From contig CAYYTK010000024.1 in assembly GCA_964474695.1 (NCBI GenBank), positions 2,490-66,489 on the forward strand: a stretch of 64,000 nt of DNA. Reading direction: 5' to 3'. The translations under genes were made by a program, and so were the position numbers. Below the pieces are notes generated by a model that saw nothing but the letters and a program-made list of their open reading frames with translations, searched no databases and was not told the origin of the DNA. The DNA is from an uncultured Anaerolineales bacterium (GTDB lineage: Bacteria; Chloroflexota; Anaerolineae; CG2-30-64-16). Below are positions 4,858 through 63,984 of the stretch, in pieces. Every line of letters starts with the position of its first letter. Position 1 is the first letter of the stretch.

Positions 4858-4859
4858 CA

Positions 4860-6311: not shown

Positions 6312-6313
6312 GC

Positions 6314-47306: not shown

Positions 47307-48140
47307 CTATAGACAGACGGCCACGGCCTGCAGCGACTGGATTCCGGACACGAGGAACTCCAACGTGAAGTGCCCGGTCGCGTCCGGGGCCAGCTCGCTC
47401 AGGTCGGTCCCGAACTCCCGCAGCCCAGGGGTGGGGTACACCAGCGACTCCGCGACGTCCAGCAGGTTGCCCTGGGCGTCGAAGCCGGCGGCCACCACCA
47501 GCGGCTCGGCGCAGCCCGCGGCCGGGGTGACCGTGCCGCGCGCTAGGTAGGCCGGCGCGCCGTCGAAGGCCGGTTTGAGCGCCGTCTGGCTGGTGAGCAT
47601 TACCTGGGCCATACCGGCGGGATCGGCCGCATACGCTTGCTCCAGGGCCAGCCGGTGGCTGGCGTAGGCACCGTTCAGCCGCTCGACATCGCGCAGATAC
47701 AGGTAGAACATGGTCCCGTCGGGCGGAATGGCGTAGGCGCTGCGCATCTGCTCGCCGGCGTTGGTCGCCGCGCGGTTGACCAGCGCCTGGCCGGCCGCGT
47801 CGAGCAGCTCCACGTCGATGACGACGTCGGCCCACTCCTGCGAGTGGTTGCGCACCAGGGCGGGGATGTGGACAAAGCCGTTGATCACGCGGCCCTGGCC
47901 GCCCACCAGCTCGAACTGGCCGCGCGTCTGGGTTGTTGGGGTCATACCATCATCTCCTGAAGGTTGATTCACTTGCGCCTCCGGCGCGCGCGTCGGGTCG
48001 ACCGGCGCGCTTGCCGGCGCGTCGCCGACGACCGGGGTCAACGGCTCTACATCGATATGGCCTGAGCTGCCGCCCAGGCGCGGCAGGGTGCACCCGGCGC
48101 ACAGCAGCGCCAGCAGCACCGCACAGATTGGTCGTAACAT
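47307..48140 (-). CDS. Lipoprotein with Ig-like (FxLYD-like) domains
   Basis: LCAGC lipobox; VRN..WADV.IDVELLDAAG pattern. Confidence 0.65.
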   Translation of the reverse strand: MLRPICAVLLALLCAGCTLPRLGGSSGHIDVEPLTPVVGDAPASAPVDPTRAPEAQVNQPSGDDGMTPTTQTRGQFELVGGQGRVINGFVHIPALVRNHSQEWADVVIDVELLDAAGQALVNRAATNAGEQMRSAYAIPPDGTMFYLYLRDVERLNGAYASHRLALEQAYAADPAGMAQVMLTSQTALKPAFDGAPAYLARGTVTPAAGCAEPLVVAAGFDAQGNLLDVAESLVYPTPGLREFGTDLSELAPDATGHFTLEFLVSGIQSLQAVAVCL

Positions 48141-48210
48141 GCTTACCTTCCTTCATAACTGTTATGTCGATACGTTAGTGCTGCCACCAAAGCGTATTTC
48201 TGCTGCCGCA

Positions 48211-49116
48211 TCACCGGACCGGCAGACTGGTCAAGTCTCCGGCCAGGTCCACCAGCTCGGCCAGCACCCAACCGTACTGGTCGCCGGCCACGCAGCAGAC
48301 CTGCACCCAGCGGCCCGCGGCGTCCCGGCCAACCGGCGTCAACCGGCTGCCCGCCGGCAGCGTTGCCAGCACCAGGGTGTCCGTGCCCGGCCCGGCGCGC
48401 ACATTCAGCCCCTGGGCTGGTCCCGGCTTCACCAACACAACGCCGGGGGTCGCCGTGGGCGCCGGCGTGGCCGTCGGCGCCAATGTCGGCGTCGGTGTCG
48501 CTGTCGCTGCCGACGCTGCTGCCGTAGGCGTCATCAACCGTTCCAGCGGCGCCAGGGTCAGCGCGGCGTCGGCCCGGCCTGAAGCCGTCAACAGCGCCGG
48601 GACCAGGTCTTGACTGCTCTCCAGCGCCACCACCAGTTTTCCACCCGCCTGCTCAATGATGGCTACCACCCGCAGGCTCGGCCCCACCAGGCGATTCGCC
48701 TGCCAGACATCCACGCGCTGGCCAGCTAGAAGCAGATCGCCGGGCACGTGCGTCTCGGCCACGGTCATGCCGAGCACCACCGCCTGCGCGTCCGTGGTGT
48801 AGCGCAGCTCCGCGGCCGGGACCGCATACGCGCGCAAGAGCGGGACGCCGGGCAGAAGCTCCAGCCGGGCGAGCCGGCCCACAACCTCGGCCGGATCCGC
48901 GTAGGCCGGCTGAACCACTGCGCCGCGCGGCAGATAGGCGATCTCGATCATGTCGTCCGTGATGGTCGTGTAGGGCGGGATCGCCGTTCGCGCGACCACC
49001 ACGGGGATCGGGTCGATCAGGGCGTGCAGCCGGCCCAGGGTAGTGCGCACCAGAGACAGCGCGGCCAGCAGCGCCAGCAGGCCGGCGACGCCCCGGTACA
49101 GGTTGCGTCTGAGCAT
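48211..49116 (-). CDS. CpaB-like SAF domain plus C-terminal SH3b domain protein
   Basis: VVVARTAIPPYTTIT SAF; PT linker; LNVRAGPGT...GRD...W.QV..YGWV SH3. Confidence 0.85.
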   Translation of the reverse strand: MLRRNLYRGVAGLLALLAALSLVRTTLGRLHALIDPIPVVVARTAIPPYTTITDDMIEIAYLPRGAVVQPAYADPAEVVGRLARLELLPGVPLLRAYAVPAAELRYTTDAQAVVLGMTVAETHVPGDLLLAGQRVDVWQANRLVGPSLRVVAIIEQAGGKLVVALESSQDLVPALLTASGRADAALTLAPLERLMTPTAAASAATATPTPTLAPTATPAPTATPGVVLVKPGPAQGLNVRAGPGTDTLVLATLPAGSRLTPVGRDAAGRWVQVCCVAGDQYGWVLAELVDLAGDLTSLPVR

Positions 49117-49155
49117 GTCACCTCAGGGCATACTGCATTGGCCACGGTGCGGGCC

Positions 49156-49269
49156 TCACGGCTGGTCGGGCAGCGCCAGCGGATCCGGCAGTCCCAGCGG
49201 CGATCCGGCGCGCACTTCCAGCTCGGCCTCGTAGACAACCGCGGGCGGTTCGTAGGTTGGTTTGTCCAT
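49156..49269 (-). CDS. 37-aa RiPP-precursor-like peptide (absent from the ORF track)
   Basis: MDKPTYEPPAVVYEAELEVRAGSPLGLPDPLALPDQP; GAGGTG SD; YxxP leader-like motif. Confidence 0.65.
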   Translation of the reverse strand: MDKPTYEPPAVVYEAELEVRAGSPLGLPDPLALPDQP

Positions 49270-49277
49270 CGCCCACC

Positions 49278-51923
49278 TCATGGGTGCCGCCATTGGCGGC
49301 GCAGCAGCTTCTGCCGGCGCCGCCGCACGAGCAGAATGGCCAGGATCGTCGCCAACGCCGCGCCTGCGCCGACCAGGGCCGGCGATGCGGTCGCCGCAGC
49401 GCGGAAGTCGGTGACCGTCACCGAGTTCGGGCTGAAGGCGAACAGGTAGTCCTCCACCTCCCCCTCCGGCGCGGGGCCGGTGGCATTAAGTCCATCTGCT
49501 GAACTAAGTCGGAAGCGACCGTAGATGCTGTGGTTCGTGCCCCCGCCAAAGGTGCCGGCCGGCACGTCACAGGTCACGACATGAGTCCCGGTTGCGAATG
49601 TGCCGTCCGGGATCGGCGTCCCGGCCGCATCGCGCAGCACGATAGGTTCCAGTCCGTTGCCGAAGTCCAGCCACGCCTGCACCACCCCAGGGCCGTTGGT
49701 GATGGTGAGCTCCAGGCGGCAGCCGTCGCCATCGGCAGCCAGGCCGTCCGTCCAGCCGCCCGCCGGTGCGTTGGGCGCGGCGAGCCGCACGACGCCGTCG
49801 TCCGCGTCGCCGTCCGCATACTGCCCCGGCTGAGCGCCGGCCTCGGCGGTGACGTTGGCGCCCAGCCGCAGGCTGCCCAGCGGGTGCCAGGCGGGCGTGT
49901 CGCCATCATAGGGAGCCGGCAGGTCGCCGTAGTCGCGCACCGTGGCCACCAGGCCGGCGTCGAGGGTCATGTCGAACTGCGCGGGTACGGCCACGGCGGC
50001 GATCCGGCCGGTGGCCGGGTCAGGATCGCTGTCCAGGGCGCGATCGTCCCCCTGCCAGCGCGGGCTGAAGACGTAGCCCTGCGACAGCGCGAAGCCGATG
50101 CCGTAGACGCCCTGCTCCATGCCGAACTCGTACCAGCCCTCATAGGTAGGCATGCTCTCGATCACGGCGCCGGAGAACGAGTAGAGCGTCACAGTCACCC
50201 CGTCCAGGCCCGGCTCGCCGGCCTCCTGGAGGCCGTCCGCGTCGTAGTCGAGCCACACGAAGTCGCCCAGGCTGCACGGGTCGCCCAGTGGTGCCTGGTG
50301 CAGGCCCGCATCGATCGTGGCGTCATGCTGGCCGGCGACCAGGACGATAGCGGCCGTCCGGCCCGTAGCCGGGTCCGGGTTGCTGTCGCGCGCGGGGTCG
50401 CTGCCCTGACCGGCCGCGCTGAAGACGTAGCCTGGAGGAGTGCTGAAGCCGACTTGATACGTGCCCGCGACTAACCCGGTGAAGCTGTAGGCACCGTCCG
50501 CGTCCGTGACGGTGGTGGCCAACTCCTGGCCCGCACTGTCGTAGAGCGTGACCGTGACGCCGGCCAGGCCCGTCTCGCCGGCGCCCTGCACGCCGTCCAG
50601 GTCGGCGTCGTGCCAGACCCAGTCGCCCAGGCTGGCCGGTTCAGGTGTGAGGGTAGGGGTCGGCGTGGGAACCAGGTTGACGCCGGCGTCCCAGGTGAAG
50701 TCGTCCGCCGCCGGCAGCGTGATGAGCGGGGTGCGGCCGAGCGTGCCGTTGGGAGTGAAGTCGGAGTCGAGCGCATCATTGCCGCCCTGGTCGACCGGGC
50801 TGAACTGCCAGGCGCTGCTCGCCAATTGCAGCTCGACGAAGTACTGCCCGCCGGCCGGTAGCCCGCAGAACTGGTAGCCGCCGCTGCTGGCGGTCGTCGT
50901 CGTGGCCAGCACGTTCGCCGCCGGGTCCAGCAGGCGCAGCGGCAGCCCGGCCAGCCCGCTCTCCCCCTTCTCCTGGATGCCATCCCGGTCTGCGTCGTGC
51001 CACACGAAGTCGCCGAGGCAGTAGGTCGCCGGGGTCGCGGTGGCCGTCGGGGTTGCAGTGGCCGTCGCGGTGGGCGTGCGCGTGGGTGTGAAGGTCGCCG
51101 TCCGCGTGGCTGTCGGCGTCGGCGTGCGCGTCGCCGTGGCCGTCGGTGTGCGGGTCGGCGTGTGCGTTGGCGAAGAGGTGGCGGTAGCCGTCAGCGTCCA
51201 GGTCGGCGTGTAAGTCGCCGTCGCGGTGCGCGTCGGTGTGGGCGTGTTGGTCGGCCCGCTCCCGCAGCACAACAGGTTCTCGACGCTGCACACCACCGGA
51301 TCGCCCAGCACGTTGACGTTGACCCACGATCCCAGGTTGTTCGGCGTGTAGCGGCAATCCGCCTGGTCCGCGTTGCCGCCCACGTCGGTCACCCAGCGCG
51401 CATCCCCGAAGCTGTGGGCGCGCGTCTGCTCGCAGCGGTAGATCTCGATCTTCCAGTTGTTGGTGGCGTCGACCACCGCGTTCAGGTGCCAGGTCACGGA
51501 GCCGCCGGCCGGCACGGTGACCGGGCAGCCGCTGTTCGTGCTGCCGCCGTAGCACTGCGCCCAGCGGCCCCACATGCTGTCGTAGGCCCAGAAGGTGACC
51601 GCCGCGCTGCAGCTGTTGAACAGCTCGATCAGGCCGACCTCCGTATCCGGCGCGAGCGCGGGCGCCTCGCTCAGCAGCGGTGCAGTGGTGCGGTCGCGCC
51701 ACGCCGGCGACACCTGAGCGGCCGCATGGGTCAGCACGTAGGCGCAGTCCTGGCCCGCCGGGTTGACGATCCGTTGCGCAACCACCGCCTGCGAGCCGGC
51801 CGGAACAAGGTCTTGCGCTACGGCTGCGCCCGGGAAGTCCGGAGCAGCGGCCGCGCCGGTGGTCAGGATCATGCCGAGCAGCAGGACACCCAAGATGGTA
51901 AGTGCAGATGGTGTGCGGATCAT
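49278..51923 (-). CDS. Cell-surface protein: three SdrD B-like domains, GEVED domain, PT linker, C-terminal TM anchor
   Basis: Three LGD(F/W)VW.D...DG.Q..GE.GL repeats with DSD motifs; GEVEDY; [15 protein letters not shown]; signal peptide from MIRTP. Confidence 0.9.
51020..51260 (-). repeat. Pro/Thr-rich coding repeat (TPTATAT)n
   Basis: Low-complexity linker inside the SdrD-type protein. Confidence 0.85.
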
Positions 51924-51983
51924 GGCTCCTCCTCCAGGTGCAGGATAGCCTCCGGGGTCAACTGGCCCCGGAGGCCAACTCAC

Positions 51984-52283
51984 TTACGGCAGTCGCGGCC
52001 GCGGCAGCGGCGGCAGCTTGGTTGGGGGCGGGCACTTGAAGATGAACACACCGTCCACCAGCATGCGCGCCGGCGTCGGGCAGTCTGGGGTGGCCAGCCG
52101 CACGTACTGGCCGTCGATGAAGGCGCCCTGCGGCAGGCCGCCGGACGACGCGGTGTAGACCATAGACATGGGCCGGCTGGTGGTCGGGACGTTGCCGGCG
52201 GCCAGCGCCGGGGCGACCGACGTGGCGAGCAGCAGGACGACCAGGGCCACCAGGGCTACAGCGGAATGTTTCGGATGTTGCAT
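51984..52283 (-). CDS. Small secreted protein
   Basis: Signal peptide; Pro-rich C-terminus. Confidence 0.6.
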   Translation of the reverse strand: MQHPKHSAVALVALVVLLLATSVAPALAAGNVPTTSRPMSMVYTASSGGLPQGAFIDGQYVRLATPDCPTPARMLVDGVFIFKCPPPTKLPPLPRPRLP

Positions 52284-52354
52284 ACGGCTACTCTCCTTGC
52301 AGATATGAACACGAGATAGGCCACCGGCAGGCCGGACGCCTGCCGGTCGGGCGG

Positions 52355-52873
52355 TTACTTCTCCGGCGCGGGTGCCGCAGCATCCAGATGGCGCGGCGGC
52401 GGTTCGAGCACGCAGGGTGTCGGGGTCGCTGCGCTCACCCGCGGCACGCCGGGCTTGAGCGGTTCCGCCGTCGGCCGGGCGACATCGCGTTGCGTGCCAC
52501 CTGCCGCAGTGGCAGCCGGGCGCGCGACCTCAGGACGCGCGCCAGTGACTGCGGCGACGGGCAGCCCATCCCGCGCGGCCCCAGGCCGGCTCTCTTCAGC
52601 CGCGCTTGACACAGCAGCAGCCGGTGGCGGGACCACCGGACGGGGCAGATTCACGGTCGGTGCGCGACGCGCCGGTGCAGCCGGCGGCAGGCGCGTGGCG
52701 GTGGACGGCGCCGGCTCGACTGCCGGCGCGGGCTGCGTAGTCCCCCCTATCAGCACGGTCTCGTGCGGCGCGACCGGCCGCGTGACCTGTTCCAGTGGCG
52801 CTATCTGTCCACCGGCCAGGCCCGCGCCGATCAGCAACCCGAGCGCCGCAACGAGACCCCAAATCAAACGCAT
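52355..52873 (-). CDS. Secreted Pro/Ala-rich protein
   Basis: Signal peptide; GGAGGA SD. Confidence 0.55.
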   Translation of the reverse strand: MRLIWGLVAALGLLIGAGLAGGQIAPLEQVTRPVAPHETVLIGGTTQPAPAVEPAPSTATRLPPAAPARRAPTVNLPRPVVPPPAAAVSSAAEESRPGAARDGLPVAAVTGARPEVARPAATAAGGTQRDVARPTAEPLKPGVPRVSAATPTPCVLEPPPRHLDAAAPAPEK

Positions 52874-53118: not shown

Positions 53119-53997
53119 TCAGAGCGCGTTGATCACCGGCAGCAGCAGCGGCACCAGGATCAGGAACATGAACGGCAGAAAGAAGAACAGCACGGTCGGC
53201 ACGGCCAGCCGGCTCTCCAGCGCCTCGGCCTCGCGCAGCGAGCGGTCCTTGTAAGCAATGATGAGCGTGCGCGCCAGGCCTTCCATCAGCTCCGGCCCGG
53301 CCACGCCGGTGCGCGACGCCTGGTCGATCTGCGCCGCAAACGCCTTGACCGGCGGCAGGTCGTAGCGGTTGACCACCTCGACCAGGACCCCCGCCACGTT
53401 CTCGCGGCTGAAGAGCGGCCGGCCGCTGGTGCGCGCCTCCTCGACCGCCCGCCGCAGCAGGTTGCCCAGCGGCCCGCCGAACTCCGCCGCGCGCGCCAGC
53501 GCCCGGTCGGGTGGGTTGCCGGCGCTCATCTCGGCCGCCATCAGCGCGGCCAGGTCGGGCAGGCTGCGCTGCACCCGCCGGCGCACCGCGTTGCCCTGGC
53601 TGCGCAGGCGCGCGAAGGGCGCGACCGCGCCCAGCAACGCCGCGGCGACGAGCGCAGGCACGCCGGTGACCACGGGCAGCAGCAGGCCCAGGCCGCCAAA
53701 CACGATGGCCAGGCCCCAGATCGCCGCGGCCGAAGGCGCATCGCCGACCAGCAGCAGCCAGCGGCGGTGGGCCTCCACGTCCACCAGCCCGCCCAGCGCC
53801 GGGAAGCGGTTCAGCGCCGCGCCCCCGACCTGCTCGAACGCGTTGCCCTCCGCGCGGCCCAGATAGCCAGCCACGACGGAGCCGGGCGTGCGCGAGAAGG
53901 CGAAATCGGTGCGGGCGGCGAGCAGCGCCACCAACAGGCCGGCGCACAGGGCCGTCCCGGCCACCAGGAGCTGCTGGGTGAGATAGGTAGATGGCAT
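53119..53997 (-). CDS. tadC: TadC / T2SS F-family pilus platform protein
   Basis: LPDLAALM..SAG..ALAR...LG...C-terminal TM. Confidence 0.85.
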   Translation of the reverse strand: MPSTYLTQQLLVAGTALCAGLLVALLAARTDFAFSRTPGSVVAGYLGRAEGNAFEQVGGAALNRFPALGGLVDVEAHRRWLLLVGDAPSAAAIWGLAIVFGGLGLLLPVVTGVPALVAAALLGAVAPFARLRSQGNAVRRRVQRSLPDLAALMAAEMSAGNPPDRALARAAEFGGPLGNLLRRAVEEARTSGRPLFSRENVAGVLVEVVNRYDLPPVKAFAAQIDQASRTGVAGPELMEGLARTLIIAYKDRSLREAEALESRLAVPTVLFFFLPFMFLILVPLLLPVINAL

Positions 53998-53998
53998 C

Positions 53999-54931
53999 TC
54001 ACGCCTCCAGTGCGTCGTTGATCATGCCGTTCAGGAACACGTACCCGAACGCCATCGCCGCGAGCGACGCGCCCGCGACCAGCTGCGCGGTCGGCGCGGC
54101 GAAGCCGGCCCGGATGCTGGGCGAGGAGAGCATCATGCCCAGCACGATGCCCATGATGACCAGCATGGTCAGCACCGCCCCCCGCGCGGCCTCGGCCTTG
54201 GAACCGGCCACCGCCCGCGCCTCCAGGATCGCGGACAGCTCGTCGGCGGTCGTGGTGAACGCCACCGCGAAGCCCGTGCCGCCGGTCTCGGCCAGCCGGC
54301 CGATCTCGTACAAGACCAGGCCCAGCAGCGGCGTGATCTGCATCGCTTCGGCGCGGGCCTTCTCCAGATAGGCGCTGCCTTCCAGCCGCAGGCCTTTCAG
54401 CAGCCGCGCCAGCCACAGCCGCAGGACGCTGCCCTCGGCCAGGTTGCCCACCACCTCCTCGACCGCTTTGAGCGGCGCCTGGGTGACGAGCAACTGCCCG
54501 CCGAGCTGGCTGACGAAGAGCGGCAGGTCGGCCTCGACCGCCAGCCGCGCCTTGCGCCAGCGGCCCTTCAGAAACGTATCGGCCAGGATGTAGCCCAGCG
54601 CGGCCAACCCCAGCGCGGGGATGAGCGGCAGCCCCATCAGCAGCGCCAGCAGCCACGGCGCGACCGCGCCGCCGATCTGCGCGGCCAGGACGAGCCGCCG
54701 CGGCAGTAGGCCCAGCGCGGCGTTGATGCCGGCGGCTTCGGCGTCGGCCTCGGGGGCCGGTTGGACCGCGGCGGGCGCCATGTAGCCCGCCACGACCTGG
54801 CCCGGGCCGCGGCCGAACGACACCCGGCTCGCCACGGCGGCGACCGTGCTCCCGGCCGCGATGGCCAGCGCCAGCACCAGGAGCGGCTGGAGCAGCGGAT
54901 TCCCCAGCAGTCCTCGAATCAACTCTTGCAT
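53999..54931 (-). CDS. tadB: TadB / T2SS F-family pilus platform protein
   Basis: TMs; EADLP.F..QL...A.AEA.....C-terminal TMs; follows the CpaF gene. Confidence 0.85.
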   Translation of the reverse strand: MQELIRGLLGNPLLQPLLVLALAIAAGSTVAAVASRVSFGRGPGQVVAGYMAPAAVQPAPEADAEAAGINAALGLLPRRLVLAAQIGGAVAPWLLALLMGLPLIPALGLAALGYILADTFLKGRWRKARLAVEADLPLFVSQLGGQLLVTQAPLKAVEEVVGNLAEGSVLRLWLARLLKGLRLEGSAYLEKARAEAMQITPLLGLVLYEIGRLAETGGTGFAVAFTTTADELSAILEARAVAGSKAEAARGAVLTMLVIMGIVLGMMLSSPSIRAGFAAPTAQLVAGASLAAMAFGYVFLNGMINDALEA

Positions 54932-54949
54932 AAACAGACCTCCCCCTTC

Positions 54950-55171
54950 TCAGGCCCAGGCCCGGCGCACGGGCCAAGTCAAGATGACGGCCGCGATCGT
55001 CACCCCCAGAATGCCGACGACCGGAACTTCCAGCAGTGTCCCTGTCAGGCAGATGGCCACGGGCCAGACCACTTGCAGGGTCCTGGGGCGCCAGGATGGG
55101 CAAGCCAGCGCCAGCCCGATCGCCGCAGCCAGCAAAATCAGAAACCGATAGACCGTCATTGCTCCTGACAC
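54950..55171 (-). CDS. Small membrane protein
   Basis: 73 aa, largely hydrophobic, lies between cpaF and tadB. Confidence 0.5.
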   Translation of the reverse strand: MSGAMTVYRFLILLAAAIGLALACPSWRPRTLQVVWPVAICLTGTLLEVPVVGILGVTIAAVILTWPVRRAWA

Positions 55172-55198
55172 CTGCCCCCTGATCCCTGACGCCTGCCC

Positions 55199-56443
55199 TC
55201 ACTCCCGCCGCCGGCTCGGCGCCTTGAGCTCGGCCTCGCCCGGCAGCCAGAGCGGCTCCAGCCGCACGTTGCCGCCGGACGTCAGCCCGCCGACCTCCCA
55301 GGCGCCCAGCGCCACCCGCCGTCCCTCGCGCCAGCCGACCTGGACGATCAGGTCGATCGCCTCGGTGAACATCCCTTTGGCCGCCTCCGCGCGCACGTTG
55401 GCGTCGGAGTTCATGATGATGCCGATACGGTGCACCGCGTGCTCCGGCCCGTCGGCGTGGAAGGTGGTCAGGCCCGCGTGGTCGCTCATCATGGCCCGGA
55501 ACAGCGACAGTGCCGCGTCCCCCTTGCGCACCTCGCCGACGATCAGGTGGCTGGGCGCCAGGCGCAGCGCGTCGTCCACGCCGTGCCTGACCTCGTAGGC
55601 CGGCACGGTTGAGCCGGGCGGCGCAGGCCGCGCTTCCAGCGTGGTCACGTTGGGATGCGGCAGCCAGATCTCCTCCGGGTCCTCGACCTTGACGACGCGG
55701 GCGTCCAGCGGCACGCCGTGGCAGAGCGCCGACAGCAGTGTGGTCTTGCCCGTGCCCGTGCCGCCGATGACCATCACCCGCAGCCGGCGGCCCACCGCAT
55801 CCAGCAGCGCATCCATGACCGGCGGGGTGAAGACGCCCCACGCCACGACCTGCGCCGGCGTCACCGGCAGCGGCTCAAAGAGCCGGATCGCCAGCGTCGG
55901 GTAGCCGCCGCCCGGCGCGATGCAGGGGTGCAGGACCTTGACGCGCGCGCCGCCGAAGCCGATCTCCCGGTCGCGCGGCAGCTTGGTGTCCACCGACGGT
56001 GTGGCTTCCGAGCAGGCCCGGCCCTCCGGGGCGAGCAACGCCTCGACGGCTCGCCACACCTCTTCTTTGGTCGGGGCCAGGTATTCCAGCCGCGCAAACG
56101 CCATCGCGGTCTTGCGCCGCGTCCACACCGCGCCGTCGGCGTTGACCAGCACGTCGGTGTACTCGGTGCAGTGCGGCGGGAACAGAGCGTCCAGGAAGCC
56201 CAGGCCGCCGACCCGCGCCACCACCCGGTTGACCATCCCCTGCAGCTGGTTGTTGTCGGGCTGCGGCCCGCCCACCGCGCGCAGCCCGTTGCGCACCGCC
56301 GCCTCGGCCCGCCGGCCTACTTCGGCCCGGTTGCGCAGTTCAGCCAGCGACAGGCTCGACAGCTCCTTGCTGGCGCTCTCGACCACCGCCGTGACCTGCT
56401 CCGGCGTCAGCGCGTTCTGTACCGCTCCCCAGCTCATAGTCAC
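55199..56443 (-). CDS. cpaF: CpaF/TadA pilus assembly ATPase
   Basis: GGTGTGKTT, VEDPEE, LRLAP..LIVGEVR, TTFHA. Confidence 0.92.
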   Translation of the reverse strand: MTMSWGAVQNALTPEQVTAVVESASKELSSLSLAELRNRAEVGRRAEAAVRNGLRAVGGPQPDNNQLQGMVNRVVARVGGLGFLDALFPPHCTEYTDVLVNADGAVWTRRKTAMAFARLEYLAPTKEEVWRAVEALLAPEGRACSEATPSVDTKLPRDREIGFGGARVKVLHPCIAPGGGYPTLAIRLFEPLPVTPAQVVAWGVFTPPVMDALLDAVGRRLRVMVIGGTGTGKTTLLSALCHGVPLDARVVKVEDPEEIWLPHPNVTTLEARPAPPGSTVPAYEVRHGVDDALRLAPSHLIVGEVRKGDAALSLFRAMMSDHAGLTTFHADGPEHAVHRIGIIMNSDANVRAEAAKGMFTEAIDLIVQVGWREGRRVALGAWEVGGLTSGGNVRLEPLWLPGEAELKAPSRRRE

Positions 56444-56451
56444 CTCAAGTC

Positions 56452-56520
56452 AGAAGGATGAAGGCGGAAGGATGAAGAACCGCTAATCTCCTTCAGCCTT
56501 CATACTTCAGCCTTCATCCT
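56452..56520. repeat. Inverted heptamer arrays (AGGATGA/AGGCGGA versus TTCAGCC/TTCATCC)
   Basis: aaggatgaaggcggaaggatgaa...cttcagccttcatacttcagccttcatcct between cpaE-like and cpaF. Confidence 0.75.
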
Positions 56521-57836
56521 TACATGCGTATCCGGATCGGCCCCAGGTGGATCACCCGGCCGGGTCGGGCGGCGTCGGGCAGGATCGGCGGCGGGCCGGC
56601 GAAGAGCAGGTCGCCCAGCGTCTTGGCAGCCCGGCGCACCTCGTCGGACCGGAAGTAGGCCGGCTTGCCCTCATTCGCCGCGGCCTCCACCTGCGGGTCG
56701 TCGGCGATCGCCGCGGCCAGCGACGGGAAGTCGCGCTTGGCGCGGCGCGCCTCGGAGCCCGCGGTCGCCACTTCATTGGGCGACAGGGTGCTCTGGCGCA
56801 CGCCGTTGACCACCAGGTGGATCGCCTCCGGCGGGATGCGGTGCTGGCCCGCCATCACGTCGTGGATCACGCGCGTGCCCTCGGCCGCGGCCAGCACCCC
56901 CGGCACGTCGGGCCGCGCCACCAGCACCAGGGTGTTGGCCGCGCTGAGCGCGGCCGCGGCCAGCTCCTGCGCCGAGACGTCGAAGATCACCGGCACGAAG
57001 CCGGCCTGCGCGGCCGTGTAGGCCAGGCTGCCCAGCGCCTTCGGCCCGGAGAGCGCCTCCAGGTTGTAGTTCATCAGGCTCATCAGGTCGGGGAACCCGG
57101 CCAGCAGGCTGACGCCGTGCACGTTGCGCACGCAGGCGCGCAGGCCGTCCACGGTCGGGTTCGTGGTCCAGGCGACCAGGTTGGGCTCCGGCGCGTTCAG
57201 CCCCGCCATCAAGGGCAGCGGGTCGGGCGCGCCGAGGCCGACGAGCAGCGCGGGCAGGCGGCGAGAAGCGGCTTCCAGCGCCAGCGCCAGGGCGAGGGTG
57301 GACTTGCCCACCCCGCCCTGCGGCGACCACACCGCGATGGCCCGCCAGCCGATCATGGCCCCGCCCGGGGACTGGAACGGCAGGAACGCGTCCCGGCCGC
57401 CGGGGTTCAGGCTCGCCTGGCGGCGCAGCAGCACTGCGGCGTAGATCTGCCCGGCGAGCGCAGTCAGGTTGACCTCGCCGACCAGCGCCTCCTTGACGCA
57501 CGGCAGCCCGCGCACCGCCGCGACCTGGTTCTCCGGCACGTTGGCGGGCAGCAGCACGTAGCAGACGCCGGGATACTCGCCGAAGATATCCTTCAGCTCG
57601 GTCGGGCCGCTGAAGACCTGGCCCTCGATGACCGCGGCTTCGGGCTGCATGGCGAGCTTGGCGCGCGTGTCGTCCGCGCTGGTCGCCATGGCCAGCACCT
57701 GGAAGCGCGCGTCCTTGACCAGCAGGCCGTAGAGCGCCTGGGCGCGCGCCGGCTCGCCCGCCACCAGGATCGTGACGGGCCGCTCGCCGGGGATCGGGCC
57801 GGCCGCCGGGGCCGGCCGCGTGAAGCCCCACGTCAT
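56520..57836 (-). CDS. cpaE: CpaE/TadZ-like receiver plus ParA/MinD ATPase
   Basis: N-terminal receiver-like domain; WSPQGGVGKST deviant Walker A; VIFDVS. Confidence 0.8.
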   Translation of the reverse strand: MTWGFTRPAPAAGPIPGERPVTILVAGEPARAQALYGLLVKDARFQVLAMATSADDTRAKLAMQPEAAVIEGQVFSGPTELKDIFGEYPGVCYVLLPANVPENQVAAVRGLPCVKEALVGEVNLTALAGQIYAAVLLRRQASLNPGGRDAFLPFQSPGGAMIGWRAIAVWSPQGGVGKSTLALALALEAASRRLPALLVGLGAPDPLPLMAGLNAPEPNLVAWTTNPTVDGLRACVRNVHGVSLLAGFPDLMSLMNYNLEALSGPKALGSLAYTAAQAGFVPVIFDVSAQELAAAALSAANTLVLVARPDVPGVLAAAEGTRVIHDVMAGQHRIPPEAIHLVVNGVRQSTLSPNEVATAGSEARRAKRDFPSLAAAIADDPQVEAAANEGKPAYFRSDEVRRAAKTLGDLLFAGPPPILPDAARPGRVIHLGPIRIRM

Positions 57837-57850
57837 GGTCGCCTCCTGCG

Positions 57851-58852
57851 CTATTTGCCGGCCCTGCCGGGGGTGGGCGTCGGCGCCGGCGTCGGCCGGG
57901 CGTGCTCCACGTCCGCCGCGAGGTCCGCCAGCGAGAGCCCGCTGGTCGTGTACGGCTCGGCGTGCTCCGGCGCCAGCACCAGGGTGAAGGACGCGTCGGT
58001 CGCGTTGAGCGCGGCCAGCAGCTCCACCGGCACCAGTAGGCGCTCGATGATCTGCGGGCGCTGCGCGTCAGCGGCAGCCGCCCCACCCGGCGCCTTGCCC
58101 CCGGCGAGCAGCCCCAGCGTGTCCGAGACCGGCACGGTCGTCGTGATCATCTGATAGGTGATCGAGATCGGCTTGGTGCTCGCGGCGAGTACGATCACGC
58201 CCTCGCGCAGGTTTGTGGCGGTCGTCGGCGAAGAACTCGACGCGGCGGGCTGCGCGGCGAGCAGGCCGGTGTTCGACTTGCCCTGGCCGCCGCTGACCGT
58301 TGCGGAGGCCGTCACGGGCGTGTAGGGCCGCGCCTGGAACTCCGGCGGCACGTAGAGCACCCGCACCCCTTCCAAGAGCGCCTTGGCGTAGACGGTGCGC
58401 ACGGGGGCCGCGATCACGCCCGGCTGGATGTCCGCCGGGTCCTGCGTCTGCCCGGCCAGCGTCGCCACCACGCCTACGGTCATGCCGGGCCGCAGCAGGC
58501 CGGCCAGGCCGGTATCGGCCTTGACCTGCACCGCGATGCCCCGCTCGTCCGGCTTGAGGCTCACGGCCGGCCCTAAGTGCCGGGCGGTCACCGGCTCGCC
58601 CGCGAAGCGCACCACCGCCAGCGACTGGCCCACCAGCGCCGCCGGGTCGGCCAGCGCGTCGGCCGGCGCCTGGCTGGCCGGCAGCGTCGCGGTCGTCAGG
58701 TCGGACGCGGCCAGCGCCAGGCCCGCGCCCAGGTCGCGCGCGGCCACGACCACGGTCTTTTGCGGCTCCTCTTTCGGCCACAGCACCAGCGCCAGCAGGG
58801 CGCAGGTGATCACGCCCAGGGCCAACGGTAGGCCCACTCCTTTTCTGCGCAT
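57851..58852 (-). CDS. cpaB: Flp pilus assembly protein CpaB/RcpC
   Basis: TM; VVVAARDL.AG..L SAF; ERGIAV...GL..L.PG..V.V; VLYV. Confidence 0.9.
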   Translation of the reverse strand: MRRKGVGLPLALGVITCALLALVLWPKEEPQKTVVVAARDLGAGLALAASDLTTATLPASQAPADALADPAALVGQSLAVVRFAGEPVTARHLGPAVSLKPDERGIAVQVKADTGLAGLLRPGMTVGVVATLAGQTQDPADIQPGVIAAPVRTVYAKALLEGVRVLYVPPEFQARPYTPVTASATVSGGQGKSNTGLLAAQPAASSSSPTTATNLREGVIVLAASTKPISITYQMITTTVPVSDTLGLLAGGKAPGGAAAADAQRPQIIERLLVPVELLAALNATDASFTLVLAPEHAEPYTTSGLSLADLAADVEHARPTPAPTPTPGRAGK

Positions 58853-59144: not shown

Positions 59145-59849
59145 TCAGCGAATGCTGACCCGGATCACGCACGGCTCCGGGTAGTTGCCGGTGCGATCCA
59201 CGGCGGTCAACCGGAGCTGGTAATCGCCGCGCGGCACCGTGCGCGTGTTGAACTCGATCAACAGGCCGTCCTGCACCGCCGCGTTCGACCGGTACAGCAT
59301 CGTCCAGCCCTGGCCGTCGGCGGACAGCTCGCCCTTCCAGTACTCCTGGTTCGGGATCGCGGCGGTCCCGACGATGTTCCACCAGCCGGCCTTGCCCGCC
59401 GTCGTTATTGAGGCAATCTTCACGTCGCCGCGCGGGCAGCTCAGGACCGCGAACTTGACCGGTTCCCCGGCGTTCAACCCGCCGCCTCCGCCGGCGCCCA
59501 GGCTCAACTTGGGCAGCGCCGGCAGGCCTGGCAGGGCGGGCGTGACCGTGACCGGCGCCGTGGCCCACCAGCCCGGCGTCGGCGTGATCGTGGCCGTGGG
59601 CGTCGGTAGCGGCTGATAGGCCAGACCGTCCACCGCGGCCGGCGGCCGGGCGAACCCGCGGCTGGCGATGGCGGCCAGTCCGACCAGGATCGCCAGCGCG
59701 GCCAGCGCGAGCAGGATCACGTCAATGCGCAACCGCCACGGCGCGCGTGACCGCACCGCCGTCCCGCCATCAGAACTGATCGCACTGTCGCCCCAGCCCA
59801 CCGTCTCCGCGTCTCCCTTTCTCCCCATCTCCCCTGCTCCCCCGCTCAC
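59145..59849 (-). CDS. Membrane-anchored protein with a C-terminal Ig-like domain
   Basis: TM; PT linker; GTA..P..YW....W...G.L..FNTRTVPRGDYQLRL.AVD..GN. Confidence 0.7.
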   Translation of the reverse strand: MSGGAGEMGRKGDAETVGWGDSAISSDGGTAVRSRAPWRLRIDVILLALAALAILVGLAAIASRGFARPPAAVDGLAYQPLPTPTATITPTPGWWATAPVTVTPALPGLPALPKLSLGAGGGGGLNAGEPVKFAVLSCPRGDVKIASITTAGKAGWWNIVGTAAIPNQEYWKGELSADGQGWTMLYRSNAAVQDGLLIEFNTRTVPRGDYQLRLTAVDRTGNYPEPCVIRVSIR

Positions 59850-62800
59850 ACCACGATCTCCCCCAACTGCGCCACGATCTCATCGCGCGTCGGGGCCGGC
59901 ACGTCCAGCAAGAGCGGCTGGATGTAGACCGGCTCCACCTGCGCCCGGTCGGTCGTGTAGCCCAGCTTGACCACCGCACGCGCCACCGGCATCGAGGCCA
60001 GGAAGCGGCGCCACGGTTCGTCCACGAACCCCTTCTCCGAGCGGGCCAACGCCGCGATCATGGCGTCGCGATCCTTGGGGTTCTTCAGGTTGGCCACCAC
60101 CATGTTGTTGCACGACGACAGGATGCCGGTCGGGATCAACGACGGCGACTGGGTGATCAGGTGCAGCCACATGCCGTACTTGCGCGCGTCGCGCCACCAG
60201 TTGGTGAGCTGCTCCGAGACCGACACCCCGCCGCCCGTCTCCTCGTCCGCGCCGGTGTCCAGGCCGGAGAGGATCTTGTTGGCCTCCTCGAACACGATCT
60301 GGATGCGCGCGTCCCCGGTGACCCCCAGCTCGTCGCGCTGGATCACGGCGTCGTTGTAGAAGTGCCACGCCGCCCAGCCCAGCAGGAACGCCTTGGAGAA
60401 GTCGTCCAGGAACTTGCCGCCCTCCAGGATGGCGATCCCCCAGTCGCCGGGCACGACCGTGTTGATGTCGATGGCGTCCAGGCCCTCGGCGTACTGCCGC
60501 GCGGCCTGGCCCTGCACCAGCGGGTGCAGCCGAAACAGGATGCCTTCCAGCACCCCGCGCAGCGTGGTGTCGCGCTCCGGCACGCCGCTCAGCTTGGTCT
60601 CGACGTCGCCGTAGAGGTCGCCCAGCCCCACCACCTGCGAGCGCGCCACGGCCAGCTGCTGGCGGGCTGGCGCGGGCAGCGCCGCAAGCCGCGTGCCCGC
60701 GGGGTGGCCGATCAGGACGGACTCGTCCGGCCGGACGACGCCCCACACCTTGTCCCGCCGGCACTCCGGGTCGTCCACCAGCACCCCGGAGCCCAGGTAG
60801 ACCCGGCGCAGCGCCTCGCGCAGCTCCGGGATCTGCCGCCGGACGCCCGCGCGCGCCACCGTGCCGAAGAAGTCGCAGAAGATGCGCCACTGCACCTCCG
60901 GCGGGATGTAGCGGCCGATCTGCAGCGGGTTCCAGCGCAGCGGCCGTACGCCGCCCGGCGACAGATGGCGGATCTCCACGTGGCCCGCCAGGCCCGGCGC
61001 GTTGAGCAGCTTGCGCCAGCCCGCGCCGAAGTCGAGCACCACCGTGCGCAGCCGCCAATGCAGCGTGGTCTCGTAGACCATCCGCTCCGCGGCCACCGAC
61101 TTCCCGAAGCCGGTGTCACCCGCGAACAGCGTGTGGAAGTGCCGGTCGCGCGCCAGGCGCAGGGGGGCCGTGGTCAGGTCGGCGGTCTCCGGGCTGACCT
61201 GGTGGCCGAGCACCACCTCGCCGGGCAATTCTGGATAGAAGCCCAGCGGCGGCAGCTTCTCCTGGATGGTGACCGCCGTGCCCTCCTCGAACAGGTTGGG
61301 GCAGGTGTAGGCGGCCAGCATCGCCGGGGTCAGCAGCGTCCCCCACTTCGACCACAGGAGGCCGATGCCGAACGGATCGCCGTCCGGCTCCAGCGACGGC
61401 CGGAACGCCAGCGCGTGCTGGCGCAGCGACTCGTCCGCCGGCACGGTCAGCACCGGGGTCGGCACGCCCGGCCCGTGGAACGACTGCGGCACCAGCGCCT
61501 GGGCCGCGCGGCTGCCCTGCTCGCCGACGAACATCAGCGCGGTGGTCAGGAAGCCGCCCTCGTGCGAGGCGGTGTTGAGCAAGGACTCCAGGCCGCGCGC
61601 GATCTCGGTGAGCCGGATGGCGACGTCGTCTTCGGTCTGCCAGCCGCGGGAGATCGACAGCCCCGGCACGATGCCCGCGGACAGGCCGCCGGAGAAGGCG
61701 TGGCCGCCCGACATGGCGAGCGCCTGGCCCGCGGTGATCCCCTCACCGTGGGAGCGGCTGGCCTGTTCCGAGCGGGACACCGAGCGCCCCTCCGACCACC
61801 CCTCAGAGACCGCCTCGCCCCACGATTCGGAGTCGGCGCTGCCGTGCGTGGCGCTGTGCGAGCTGGATACCGAGCTGAACGTGCCCCGGCTGCCGCTCAC
61901 CGAATCCGCGCTGCCCCGGCTGGTCGCCCAGCCGGCGGTGTCCGCGGTGCCGCGCGTATCCGCCGCGCCGCGGGTGTCCGCGCTGCCCCGCGTGTCGGCC
62001 CAGCCGCGCGTGTCCGCCGTGCCCCAGCTCTCCGAGGTCGTGTCGGAGCTCGATCCGCCCGTGGTGTGACTGGAGCTTTGCGAGCCGCCGGTCGACTGCG
62101 CCACGCCGGATGAGTCGGTGTGCCCCGTGCTGCCGCTGACGCCGGAGCTGGTGGAATCCGCGCTGCCGGTCGACTGCGCCTGGCCCGTGCTGGCCGAGGC
62201 GGAGGCGCCCCAGGTCGTGCCCTGGCTCTCGGCCGTGCCGGATGAGTCGGCGTGGCCGGTGGACTGGCCGGTCTCGGTGCTACCGCTCTGGCCGCTGCTG
62301 GCGCCCGCGGTCCAGCCGTGGCTGTAGCCCGCGCTGGCGCTCGCCACGCCGGGCAGCCCTGCGCTGACGCCGCCCGAGACGGTGTCCGACTGGCCCTGGC
62401 TCTCGCCGCTCGACCAGCCCGAGCTCTGCGCCGACGACTGGGTCGCGCTGTCGGTTTGCGACTGGCTCACGGTCGTGCCGGCCGAGCCGCCGCTGCTGAC
62501 GCCGACGCTGGCGCCCTGCGAGGCGGTCTGGCCCGTCGAGTCGGTGTGCGCCTGGCCGGACGACCAGCCGCTCGCCTGGCTGTCGGACTGGCCGCTGGAA
62601 ACCGTGCTGCCCCAGGAAGAGCCGCTGGTCTCGGTGTCAGACCAGGAGCTCCCCTCGCTGTGCGCGACGCCGGTGGCGTGGCTGTCGGTGTGGCTGCCCG
62701 AATCGGTGTGGGCCGTGCTGTCGGTGTGGGCCACGGAGTCGGTGTGCGCCTGGCTCTCGGTGTGCGCGCCGGAGACGGTCTGCGCGGCGCTGTCGGTGTG

Positions 62801-63808
62801 GCCCCAGCCCGCGCTCTCCGAGACGCCGCTGGAAGTGCCGACCGAGTCGGTGACCGCCTGGCTCTCGGTGTGCGCGGTGCCGTGGCTCTCGGTCCGGCCC
62901 ACGCTGTGGCCCCACGACTGCCCCTCCCCCTCGCTCCACCCCTGGCTGACGCTGTCCGCGCTGGAATGCGCGGTCGAGTCGGAGCGGCCGGCGTTGGCCG
63001 CATAGGCGTTGGAGAGGGCCGCGGCCAGCGGGATGGCGATGGAGAAGCCCAGGCCGATGTTGCCGCGCTGGCGCGAGGCCACCTGGCTCGCGTAGCGCGC
63101 CATCTGGACCAGCGCGCCGGTGATCTCCGGCCGCGGCACGTGCGCGGAGGTGACCTGGAACACGAAATCCTCGCGCAGCTTGGCCAGGCCCCGCAGCAGG
63201 TTCTCGCCCTGCTGGCTCAGCAACTCGTCGTCGGCGATCCCCAGGGCCCCGTCGCGGCCCAGCCCCTTCTTGGCCAGCCGCGGGTCGGGGTGGCCCAGGA
63301 TCGCCAGCATGCGCAGCCGCTCCATGCGCTCAATGAGCAGGCGGATCCGCCGGATGTCAGCGGGGATGAGCTTCGACTGGGGGTAGTTGGCCAGGGTCGC
63401 CTCGACCGCGGCCATGCGCCGGCGGGCCTCGCCGGCCGCCGCCGCCTCGGTGAGCGCCTCCGCGGCCGCGCCGTAGAACTGCGCCACGCCCAAATGCTCC
63501 GGTGCGAACGCGCCCAGCGCGGTGTAGCAGAAGTCCACGTCCGCGTTGTAGAGGCCGCGCAGCGCGGCCCACTGCTTGCCCAGCATGTCGGGGTCGTCGC
63601 GGGTCTCCAGGGGCAGGTAGGCCAGCTCGCGGAAAGTGACGGCGCGCACCAGCTCCCGGCCGCCGGCAGCAGCCAGCCGGAACCAGAAGTAGTGCAAGCA
63701 GCCCGCCGCAAAGCGCCAACCGCTCTCCACGACCCGAAATTCCACGCCCACGCTCTCCCCCCGTCCTTTCAGGCTGCCGACAACGCCGGCCGGTTTGTTG
63801 GCCCCCAC
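59846..63808 (-). CDS. HerA/VirB4-like ATPase with a ~475-aa Ser/Gly/Thr-rich insert
   Basis: Walker A FAGDTGFGKS (61097-61120), Walker B IVFEEANK, RDARKYG..LITQSP; low-complexity insert at 61637-63064. Confidence 0.85.
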   Translation of the reverse strand: MGANKPAGVVGSLKGRGESVGVEFRVVESGWRFAAGCLHYFWFRLAAAGGRELVRAVTFRELAYLPLETRDDPDMLGKQWAALRGLYNADVDFCYTALGAFAPEHLGVAQFYGAAAEALTEAAAAGEARRRMAAVEATLANYPQSKLIPADIRRIRLLIERMERLRMLAILGHPDPRLAKKGLGRDGALGIADDELLSQQGENLLRGLAKLREDFVFQVTSAHVPRPEITGALVQMARYASQVASRQRGNIGLGFSIAIPLAAALSNAYAANAGRSDSTAHSSADSVSQGWSEGEGQSWGHSVGRTESHGTAHTESQAVTDSVGTSSGVSESAGWGHTDSAAQTVSGAHTESQAHTDSVAHTDSTAHTDSGSHTDSHATGVAHSEGSSWSDTETSGSSWGSTVSSGQSDSQASGWSSGQAHTDSTGQTASQGASVGVSSGGSAGTTVSQSQTDSATQSSAQSSGWSSGESQGQSDTVSGGVSAGLPGVASASAGYSHGWTAGASSGQSGSTETGQSTGHADSSGTAESQGTTWGASASASTGQAQSTGSADSTSSGVSGSTGHTDSSGVAQSTGGSQSSSHTTGGSSSDTTSESWGTADTRGWADTRGSADTRGAADTRGTADTAGWATSRGSADSVSGSRGTFSSVSSSHSATHGSADSESWGEAVSEGWSEGRSVSRSEQASRSHGEGITAGQALAMSGGHAFSGGLSAGIVPGLSISRGWQTEDDVAIRLTEIARGLESLLNTASHEGGFLTTALMFVGEQGSRAAQALVPQSFHGPGVPTPVLTVPADESLRQHALAFRPSLEPDGDPFGIGLLWSKWGTLLTPAMLAAYTCPNLFEEGTAVTIQEKLPPLGFYPELPGEVVLGHQVSPETADLTTAPLRLARDRHFHTLFAGDTGFGKSVAAERMVYETTLHWRLRTVVLDFGAGWRKLLNAPGLAGHVEIRHLSPGGVRPLRWNPLQIGRYIPPEVQWRIFCDFFGTVARAGVRRQIPELREALRRVYLGSGVLVDDPECRRDKVWGVVRPDESVLIGHPAGTRLAALPAPARQQLAVARSQVVGLGDLYGDVETKLSGVPERDTTLRGVLEGILFRLHPLVQGQAARQYAEGLDAIDINTVVPGDWGIAILEGGKFLDDFSKAFLLGWAAWHFYNDAVIQRDELGVTGDARIQIVFEEANKILSGLDTGADEETGGGVSVSEQLTNWWRDARKYGMWLHLITQSPSLIPTGILSSCNNMVVANLKNPKDRDAMIAALARSEKGFVDEPWRRFLASMPVARAVVKLGYTTDRAQVEPVYIQPLLLDVPAPTRDEIVAQLGEIVV
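61934..62767 (-). repeat. Two 5 x 18-bp coding repeat blocks (AHTDSx and GxADTR)
   Basis: AHTxSx x5 at 62678-62767; GxADT(R/A) x5 at 61934-62023. Confidence 0.9.
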
Positions 63809-63984
63809 CGAGGCCCCCGCAGGGCGTCCGCCCCGCCGGCCTTCACGGCCTCATACGTCTCGAAGTCCACCAGCACCGCCACCGGCACGCGGCCCTCGGC
63901 GGTCACCAGCAGCACCGGCTGTTTGTCGTCGCAGACGCGCATGAAGGTCGCCTCCAGGGCCGCCTCGGCCTCGTCTACGGTCAT
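63769..63984 (-). CDS. Phd/YefM-family antitoxin-like protein (start may lie beyond the window)
   Basis: TV.EA.A.L....RV..D.QPVLL...G.PVAVLVDFETYE; the frame stays open to the window edge. Confidence 0.7.
   Translation of the reverse strand: MTVDEAEAALEATFMRVCDDKQPVLLVTAEGRVPVAVLVDFETYEAVKAGGADALRGPRWGPTNRPALSAA

Follow-up and report, generated by a model that had tools for sequence, protein, structure and literature searches.

Pore-forming toxins with a beta-barrel stem, such as anthrax protective antigen, alpha-haemolysin and aerolysin, are secreted proteins whose barrels are formed by the oligomer. Each subunit contributes one amphipathic hairpin with strands of ~30 to 50 residues (~10 nm), a two-residue period, much Ser, Thr and Gly, and a hydrophobic, aromatic-flanked belt at the tip. 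SMC, Rad50 and MukB combine an ATPase with two long, matched antiparallel arms and a conserved apex, the arm lengths being constrained in evolution. Rulers, tape measures and stalks (phage lambda gpH, YscP, FliK, Lpp, and the SD stalks of ClfA and Sdr proteins) vary in length through repeats and are thereby able to set a distance; the SD region of ClfA, a Ser-X dipeptide repeat, is thought to span the wall. HerA, VirB4 and DndH are hexameric translocases, and we know of no member of this group that carries a giant hairpin insert. Here we describe a gene with likenesses to all of these systems. It lies on the minus strand (59846-63808) of a 64,000-nucleotide stretch of DNA, hereafter the window, from an uncultured Anaerolineales bacterium (GenBank assembly GCA_964474695.1, contig CAYYTK010000024.1, positions 2,490 to 66,489), and its product consists of an N-terminal domain, a 454-residue low-complexity insert, and an ATPase domain of the HerA/VirB4 fold. 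We report that the two halves of the insert are matched in length throughout the family, and we propose that they pair with each other.

The insert shares with toxin stems its amphipathic character, its two-residue period and its hydrophobic tip. However, its presumed strands reach 97 to 383 residues (3 to 10 times longer), one of their faces contains small residues only, both ends are hydrophobic, and they are fused to a cytoplasmic ATPase; unlike the secreted soluble precursor of a toxin, the protein has no signal peptide, and its N- and C-domains are of cytoplasmic type. Matched antiparallel arms and a conserved apex recall SMC and Rad50. In those proteins and in MukB, by contrast, alpha-helical coiled coils make up the arms, and each end of the chain contributes a part of the ABC head, whereas here the arms would be strands, the period is 2 and not the 7 of a heptad, and both Walker motifs lie in the C-domain. 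Rulers share with the insert a variation in length that is driven by repeats but differ in being single chains without a paired arm that needs compensation, and the NCBIfam match of the window protein to ClfA is far below the cut-off (17.5 versus 1150 bits). The HerA, VirB4 and DndH translocases resemble the C-domain in fold and Walker motifs, and in Anaerolinea thermolimosa a small polytopic membrane protein is encoded upstream of the homologue as VirB3 is for VirB4, but none of their family cut-offs is reached, and the genomic context is that of a Tad system rather than of type IV secretion or defense. In diderms, the Tad secretin CpaC/RcpA is an envelope-crossing component encoded in the Tad locus, as the present protein might be; the two have no relation in sequence or fold, the secretin being an exported 12- to 14-mer with a wide channel and the window protein a cytoplasmic ATPase fusion. 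What suggests a rod or tube of adjustable length, apparently of a type new to description, is the residue-for-residue match of the arms across species.

Periodicity and faces of the insert

Coordinates of the gene and its parts refer to the minus strand throughout. The insert is framed by two prolines, P260 and P715, which are invariant in the homologue alignment (P240 and P461 of homologue P0041). P260 belongs to putative base strand 1 (aa 250-273, NIGLGFSIAIPLAAALSNAYAANA, 62990-63061) and P715 to putative base strand 2 (aa 691-723, ITAGQALAMSGGHAFSGGLSAGIVPGLSISRGW, 61640-61738), both delimited from face strings and the alignment; a conserved WQTEDD motif follows the latter. Arm 1 (aa 261-485, 225 residues, 62354-63028) and arm 2 (aa 487-714, 228 residues, 61667-62350) are strict (small-X)n sequences of the same parity. 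They are joined at the predicted hairpin tip (aa 477-499, 62312-62380) through the loop L485-P486-G487 (62348-62356). Apart from the two base prolines, the translation contains a single proline in this region, P486, at position 226 of the 454 of the insert and followed by G487.

Gly, Ala, Ser or Thr occupies 228 of the 237 even positions between residues 250 and 722, the exceptions including the landmark prolines, and all even positions are G, A, S or T in every 20-residue window of both arms. The lag-2 autocorrelation of the small/large pattern was 6.7 (arm 1) and 3.9 (arm 2) standard deviations above that of shuffled sequences, and no phase slip occurs over the ~225 residues of each arm. This dipeptide phase is held in all homologues, with arms of up to 383 residues, and is fixed to the two base prolines. 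The X face, at odd positions, is hydrophobic at both bases (ILFIILAL... and ...LMGHFGLAIPLI) and near the tip, and polar or charged in between. Its tip belt, formed in the window protein by V477, V481, A483 and L485 on one side and by A489-A493, Y495 and W499 on the other, is conserved on both arms over ~8 X positions among 98 homologues. Base strand 1 is the only stretch with a 19-residue Kyte-Doolittle mean above 1.2, and its peak of 1.47 is below the usual threshold for a transmembrane (TM) helix. Such a pattern is what two long beta strands with two distinct faces leave in a sequence, and not what a disordered linker does.

Several homologues (P0125, P0131, P0192, P0199, P0144, P0126, and P0129) have a proline-rich segment (up to ~38 prolines) at the tip of the presumed hairpin, which suggests an extra module displayed there.

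Mirrored repeat arrays

A first-pass annotation of the window had pointed out five six-residue repeats of the type AHT(D/E)Sx ending 108 residues before the PG turn, and five GxADT(R/A) repeats starting 108 residues past it. Both blocks are present as described, namely, AHTESQ, AHTDSV, AHTDST, AHTDSG and SHTDSH in arm 1 (aa 348-377, 62678-62767) and GTADTR, GWADTR, GSADTR, GAADTR and GTADTA in arm 2 (aa 596-625, 61934-62023), with positions 61934 and 62767 as the outer limits of the pair. The translation of 59846-63808 leaves exactly 108 residues between each block and the PG dipeptide (378-485 and 488-595). The blocks are true tandem arrays at the DNA level, with a period of 18/36 according to Tandem Repeats Finder (62681-62802 and 61925-62025). 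A slightly looser motif gives seven units per array while keeping the mirror placement: together with the repeat search, the translation places the extended arrays at aa 336-377 (62678-62803) in arm 1 and at aa 596-637 (61898-62023) in arm 2.

As the annotation had held, the blocks are unrelated in DNA: the repeat search assigned them to separate repeat families without meaningful direct or inverted similarity. A shared DNA origin of the symmetry, through an inverted or direct repeat joining the two arms, was rejected on this ground. The same insert length of 454 residues recurs in independent metagenome contigs (L006 to L009), and run X1 matches the stretch without differences; the window sequence is therefore no assembly artifact. 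When sludge-metagenome contigs were compared with the window, one contig of 1010 bp, 96% identical, covered both arrays without gaps, the set being too fragmented and multi-strain to reveal uncompensated alleles. The repeat-block observation is correct, and it is one visible case of a rule that holds across the family; this family-wide rule of arm matching excludes a chance origin of the block symmetry.

Arm lengths across homologues

To measure the arms, base prolines were located by profile matches to the flanking domains, and the internal proline was then placed without assuming a central position. The sample comprised 181 unique inserts of 197 to 765 aa, 101 of them with exactly one internal proline and 54 free of proline. 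Because the sequences are phylogenetically related, distinct lengths were counted rather than sequences.

The single internal proline was found at relative position 0.492 ± 0.021, and within 0.47-0.53 in 98 of the 101 inserts. Arm 1 (97-383 aa) plotted against arm 2 yielded r = 0.9988 and a slope of 0.996, with 58 distinct length pairs (n = 98). Proline-free inserts had their hydrophobic maximum at 0.45-0.55 in 50 cases out of 54. The difference between the two arm lengths takes only a few discrete values, which are set by the type of tip, and arm-length parity is constant within each tip class: even in 17/17 for the xPG tips found in the window protein, odd in 18/19 and even in 6/6 for the two other classes. 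Constant parity and few discrete differences indicate that arm lengths change only by two-residue steps, and equally on both arms.

Two long-armed relatives are split inside arm 1 by a 1-nucleotide frameshift or an in-frame stop (L001:4875-8358 and L002:2491-6783), and were read through for the length analysis only. Either the long-read assembly erred at these places, where the DNA is repetitive, or the genes are real pseudogenes.

Paired indels and array copy numbers

The arms were then considered separately in alignments between close relatives, with distances given in residues from the tip; indel positions are approximate in low-complexity sequence. Between L011 and L016, arm 1 differs by +12 inside the HTDS array (at 106) and arm 2 by +6 and +6 inside the ADT array (at 105-116). 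The window gene differs from L085 by -16 in arm 1 (at 96) and -16 in arm 2 (at 81), and from L102 by +12 and -16 in arm 1 and by -16 and +12 in arm 2. For L069 versus L066, the changes are -12 at 131 and -14 at 38 in arm 1, and -14 at 25 and -12 at 109 in arm 2; for L066 versus L084, they are +6 at 98 and -14 at 44 in arm 1, and -14 at 22 and +6 at 95 in arm 2. In these comparisons each indel of one arm is paired with an equal-sized one in the opposite arm, all are even in length, and the partner is usually near the mirror distance from the tip. Within clusters of at least 90% identity, length differences reflect start sites or truncations and not changes in the insert.

The HTDS and ADT arrays are opposite one another in all subclades, and their copy numbers vary together (arm 1/arm 2): 2/2 in short-armed homologues, 4/4 in L002, 7/7 in the window gene, L011 and L085, and 9/9 in L016, L001 and L102, while another subclade has 6/6 versus 4/4. 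Motif counts across the whole family correlated only moderately (Spearman 0.55) because other subclades have a different arm-2 motif, and arm-by-arm alignment was used instead. As the arrays are ~630 nucleotides apart and unrelated in DNA, each matched change requires two mutations or the recombinational import of a pre-matched central segment. The first-pass annotation had proposed that compensatory duplications keep paired strands in register, and had called for a survey of homologues for equal, mirrored indels in both arms. The survey found just such a pattern in the arm-length correlation, the matched arrays and the paired indels, and strongly supports the proposal.

A single register along the proposed hairpin

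Small residues are even-numbered in both arms, so that paired residues must sum to an even number. Although the symmetrical 108/108 spacing around the PG turn stands, the register that it implied (i + j = 973) does not; parity calls for i + j = 972, with a three-residue LPG loop. This register places G484 opposite V488 around the loop L485-P486-G487, and the two blocks consequently face each other one residue out of step. Cross-strand charge complementarity, calculated family-wide in an independent scan, was positive only at sums 970 and 972 (+351 and +194) and strongly negative in the flanking registers (-410 and -364). The signal was kept in windows 15-50, 50-90, 90-130, and 130-200 residues from the base. 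Charge complementarity thus selects one register along the whole hairpin.

At sum 972, as the sequence itself shows, the His residues of the arm-1 array are opposite the Asp residues of the arm-2 array (349/623, 355/617, 361/611, 367/605, and 373/599), and the Asp/Glu residues of arm 1 are diagonal to Arg (351/619, 357/613, 363/607, and 369/601). With His facing Asp and Asp/Glu diagonal to Arg, unit length and copy number must match between the arrays.

Proposed mechanism

It is very probable, in our judgment, that the insert is a hairpin with compensated register. The comparisons show it behaving as a single antiparallel hairpin in one continuous register. On this reading, the protein that heads the Tad pilus operon of Anaerolineae and Caldilineae would contain a very long antiparallel beta-hairpin of 454 residues, inserted after its N-domain and before its HerA/VirB4-type ATPase. 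The (Gly/Ala/Ser/Thr-X)n arms would present one face of small residues only and an opposite, variable face, and would pair in a single continuous register from the base prolines P260/P715 to the Leu-Pro-Gly loop at 485-487. Length evolves by slippage in low-complexity DNA, including the two unrelated 18-bp arrays, and a change is kept only if even-numbered and matched by an equal one near the mirror position in the opposite arm; the five-unit (really seven-unit) arrays are one such matched pair.

HerA/VirB4-class ATPases are ring oligomers, and several hairpins would therefore lie side by side. Contacts between their small faces may assemble them into a long tube or rod in the form of a beta-barrel, although the chances of such an oligomeric assembly seem to us slightly below even. 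At 0.26-0.34 nm per residue, its length would be roughly 60-75 nm with the arms of the window protein and 26-130 nm across the family, and for six subunits, i.e., twelve strands, standard barrel geometry gives a calculated radius of ~1 nm. The tube or rod would project from the cytoplasmic membrane across the thick Chloroflexota envelope and reach a distal hydrophobic layer with its hydrophobic tip belt; that base and tip both carry such belts suggests two hydrophobic layers as anchoring sites. Adjustable in length, it could act as a conduit or spacer for the Tad machinery, an envelope-spanning role that we advance tentatively, and of the two variants an ATPase-driven conduit for DNA or unfolded protein would be the more attractive. 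That arm length would be matched to the thickness of the envelope, as in the tape measure suggested by the first-pass annotation, is plausible. Taken as a whole, a very long hairpin giving rise to an envelope-spanning, adjustable barrel or rod in the service of the Tad machinery is the best explanation at hand, and we consider it evenly balanced between right and wrong.

Filamentous Chloroflexota have multilayer envelopes with an extra outer layer of 30-50 nm, capped septal channels, and Tad-type pili near the septa (PMC7332563; bioRxiv 10.1101/2025.08.19.671072). Cryo-electron tomography showed septal channels that pass straight through the wall under a hat-shaped cytoplasmic cap, with pili anchored nearby; these bacteria have no homologues of the cyanobacterial SepJ/Fra proteins (PMC7332563). 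It is conceivable, if a long shot, that the family builds a self-assembling, ATPase-capped beta-barrel nanotube of 26-130 nm, with its base in the cytoplasmic membrane and its tip in a second membrane, and that this is the septal-channel protein or an equivalent DNA or protein conduit that works with Tad pili. The archaeal Ced ATPase, which works with Ups pili, offers a parallel to the latter.

Structure prediction and alternative explanations

A number of observations weigh against an envelope-spanning hairpin. Neither a signal peptide nor a canonical TM helix is present in the protein, which leaves the passage of ~450 polar residues across a membrane unexplained, and a Tad pilus would not fit through a barrel of 12 strands. 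Two different arm lengths in one genome, that of A. thermolimosa, complicate a ruler with one length for one envelope. As regards the indels, partners are 23-40 residues off the mirror position in the comparisons of the window gene with L102 and of L102 with L085, and low-complexity sequence can be aligned in more than one way: for one and the same 16-residue deletion, the arm-2 partner falls at 18 residues from the tip relative to L011 or at 81 relative to L085, both with inserts of 422 aa. Lastly, an AlphaFold2 (AF2) monomer model of a full-length, 1076-residue homologue, built with 69 sequences, had a predicted local distance difference test (pLDDT) score of ~90 in both domains but of only ~25 in the insert. 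DSSP assigned 60-residue paired strands to each arm of that model (246-306 and 392-452), at low confidence. As weak evidence, such strands are compatible with a hairpin that would be stable only in the oligomer.

The low AF2 confidence, the low-complexity composition and the absence of any Pfam match would also fit a disordered serine-rich linker whose symmetry is coincidental or due to shared ancestry. Nothing in such a linker would call for a perfect dipeptide phase over 200-380 residues, for a lone proline retained at the exact midpoint through 58 lengths, for even indels only or for their pairing between arms, nor would it account for register-specific charge complementarity; contradicted by the periodicity and arm-matching data, it is hardly credible. 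A pore-forming suicide or defense effector, in which a HerA-like sensor ATPase drives the amphipathic hairpin into the cell's own membrane upon phage attack, draws on the weak PADLOC and NCBIfam matches to anti-phage HerA proteins, on a hydrophobic tip like that of pore-forming toxin stems, and on a Druantia-like island in the same window. Yet the HerA matches are far under the family cut-offs (31.6 versus 800 bits), 40 kb separate the gene from the island, whose DNA differs in composition, and arms of 100-380 residues far exceed what a membrane pore needs. We rejected this very unlikely reading on synteny, since in 52 of 58 species the gene heads a Tad operon rather than lying in a defense island.

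Two further alternatives retain the hairpin. The insert could be a cytoplasmic, SMC/Rad50-like arm made of strands, whose apex dimerizes or dips into the membrane from inside and whose length defines the reach of the ATPase. An ATPase head with length-matched antiparallel arms and a conserved apex fits this picture, as does the lack of a signal peptide and a canonical TM helix, and HerA-family ATPases act with Rad50-type machines. Nevertheless, both bases also have hydrophobic faces, the periodicity is that of a strand and not of a heptad, and the conserved neighbors are envelope and pilus genes (the membrane and exported proteins of A. thermolimosa and the near-universal Tad cluster), so that a cytoplasmic arm appears improbable. 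Less remote, though still on the unlikely side, is a solid rod or tether without a channel, a stiff spacer with tightly packed small faces that keeps the partner or layer bound at its tip a fixed distance away from the ATPase. It might consist of three hairpins in a six-stranded, cylindrin-like barrel or of face-to-face ribbons, comparable to Lpp or to the Ser-Asp stalks of Gram-positive adhesins. A face made only of Gly, Ala, Ser and Thr favors tight steric packing over a wide lumen, arm matching, even steps and hydrophobic ends are accommodated equally well, and the protein has a weak compositional match to the SD-repeat region of ClfA. What speaks for a conduit instead is the translocase-type ATPase of the HerA/VirB4 fold fused at the base, for which it would provide the more natural explanation.

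Should the proposed hairpin exist, it would be the longest regular beta-hairpin known, and the first protein case known to us in which the co-evolution of paired strands proceeds through indels that compensate each other, much as that of RNA stems proceeds through compensating substitutions. The natural variants, with ~100 to ~380 residues per arm, constitute a ready-made length series. To our knowledge, Chloroflexota are without secretins and BAM; an envelope-spanning tube or rod would be a concrete candidate for how their Tad machines or cell-cell channels cross a thick and debated multilayer envelope. A strictly periodic, water-soluble beta-ribbon of programmable length would be of interest to protein designers and nanopore engineers. 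The candidate can be tested in the cultured species A. thermolimosa, Bellilinea caldifistulae, Thermanaerothrix daxensis and Litorilinea aerophila.

Domains and family of the protein

The gene is listed as a 1320-residue open reading frame (ORF), the stop being counted, and belongs to NCBIfam family NF033849 (ser_rich_anae_1, "serine-rich protein"), with 1085.1 bits against a cut-off of 650 over aa 372-1315. This is the only family to which the protein belongs; it is uncharacterized beyond its name, and literature searches found no function, structure or paper for it. The true start is probably the GTG codon at 63743-63745 (Val22) and not the GTG at 63808 of the mechanically called ORF; the N termini of homologues align from residue ~22-26.

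The N-terminal alpha/beta domain (aa 1-249, 63062-63808; AF2 mean pLDDT of 82) has no Pfam match and no signal peptide, and Foldseek searches with the AF2 model found no significant fold relative in the PDB, only a weak likeness to the N-domain of TrwK/VirB4. The C-terminal domain (aa 724-1320, 59846-61639) was assigned to the HerA/VirB4-fold P-loop ATPases by its motifs and by Foldseek on a homologue model: that of P0041 matched HerA, VirB4 and DndH-C with E values of 1e-9 to 1e-11. It has a Walker A motif (GDTGFGKS, aa 897-904, 61097-61120) and a Walker B motif (IVFEEA, aa 1171-1176, 60281-60298), and thus combines the RecA-like fold and the motifs of HerA/FtsK/VirB4-class translocase ATPases. 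Searches of Pfam, PADLOC and PDB sequences with the window protein gave only sub-threshold HerA and AAA_10 matches. For HerA proper (repair and anti-phage equivalogs), the best NCBIfam match was 31.6 bits over ~130 residues, against cut-offs of 800-970, and PADLOC HerA models scored at most 39 bits; for VirB4 and type IV secretion, the Pfam family AAA_10 scored 12.2 bits against a cut-off of 27.5, and the neighbors are Tad genes. The protein is a new branch of the HerA/VirB4 ATPase class, neither HerA nor VirB4.

There are hundreds of homologues, and every one comes from Chloroflexota (Anaerolineae, Caldilineae, and Thermoflexus). Among cultured species, insert lengths are 269 aa in B. caldifistulae, 241 aa in T. 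daxensis and 694 aa in L. aerophila, and A. thermolimosa has two paralogues, with inserts of 237 and 305 aa and each with its own Tad genes. Several genomes code for two to four paralogues, each followed by its own CpaB-TadZ-CpaF genes, as in A. thermolimosa (L060 and L113) and Anaerolineales BS750m-G45 (L061-L063 and L093). Locus L085, a close relative of the window gene with an insert of 422 aa, the same Tad synteny and the same 234-residue ORF downstream, comes from a metagenome-assembled genome labeled Verrucomicrobiota, probably through a binning or labeling error.

Tad operon and neighboring genes

Downstream of the gene and on the same strand, Pfam matches defined a Tad cluster at 53119-58852, composed of CpaB/RcpC (57851-58852), a TadZ/CpaE-like ATPase (56520-57836), CpaF (55199-56443), a TadB-like protein (53999-54931), and TadC (53119-53997). 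Of 58 species-level loci with enough flanking DNA, 52 have CpaB-TadZ-CpaF directly after the family gene. The window protein itself matches none of the Tad families of Pfam or NCBIfam, and no secretin gene is present in the listed neighborhoods of these Chloroflexota loci.

Between the ATPase gene and the cluster lies a 234-residue ORF (59145-59849, minus strand) whose sequence overlaps the ATPase stop codon. Its product, for which Pfam gave no match, contains a single TM-like segment and a linker rich in Thr and Pro. Relatives of this ORF follow the family gene only in the subclade of the window (L085, L091, L096, and L102), and two small ORFs occupy this place in other species. Directly upstream of the ATPase gene, a small ORF (63769-63984, minus strand) has a weak PhdYefM-antitoxin match (E value of 0.0012), and a similar ORF precedes the L001 homologue. 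The A. thermolimosa gene is preceded by two tightly coupled genes (L060:6110-7997) for an exported 438-residue protein and a 187-residue polytopic membrane protein, neither with a Pfam or PDB match, the membrane protein occupying the position that VirB3 has before VirB4; the gene is followed by one for an 81-residue single-pass protein. In P0098, a membrane protein of this kind seems to be joined to the insert, through either a fusion or a mis-join.

More genes of the operon are found at 47307-52873 (minus strand). They code for a 901-residue surface protein with three SdrD_B domains, a GEVED domain, long Thr-Pro linkers and a C-terminal hydrophobic anchor, and for a second SAF-domain (CpaB-like) protein with an SH3_3 domain. 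At the other end of the window, five large co-oriented genes (1132-19164, plus strand; 1241, 483, 1619, 1994, and 436 aa) include those for DruA-domain and AAA_22 proteins. Composition breaks near position 20000, with a GC content of ~0.56 in this region versus ~0.72 in the rest of the window, and the region looks like a horizontally acquired anti-phage island of the Druantia type.

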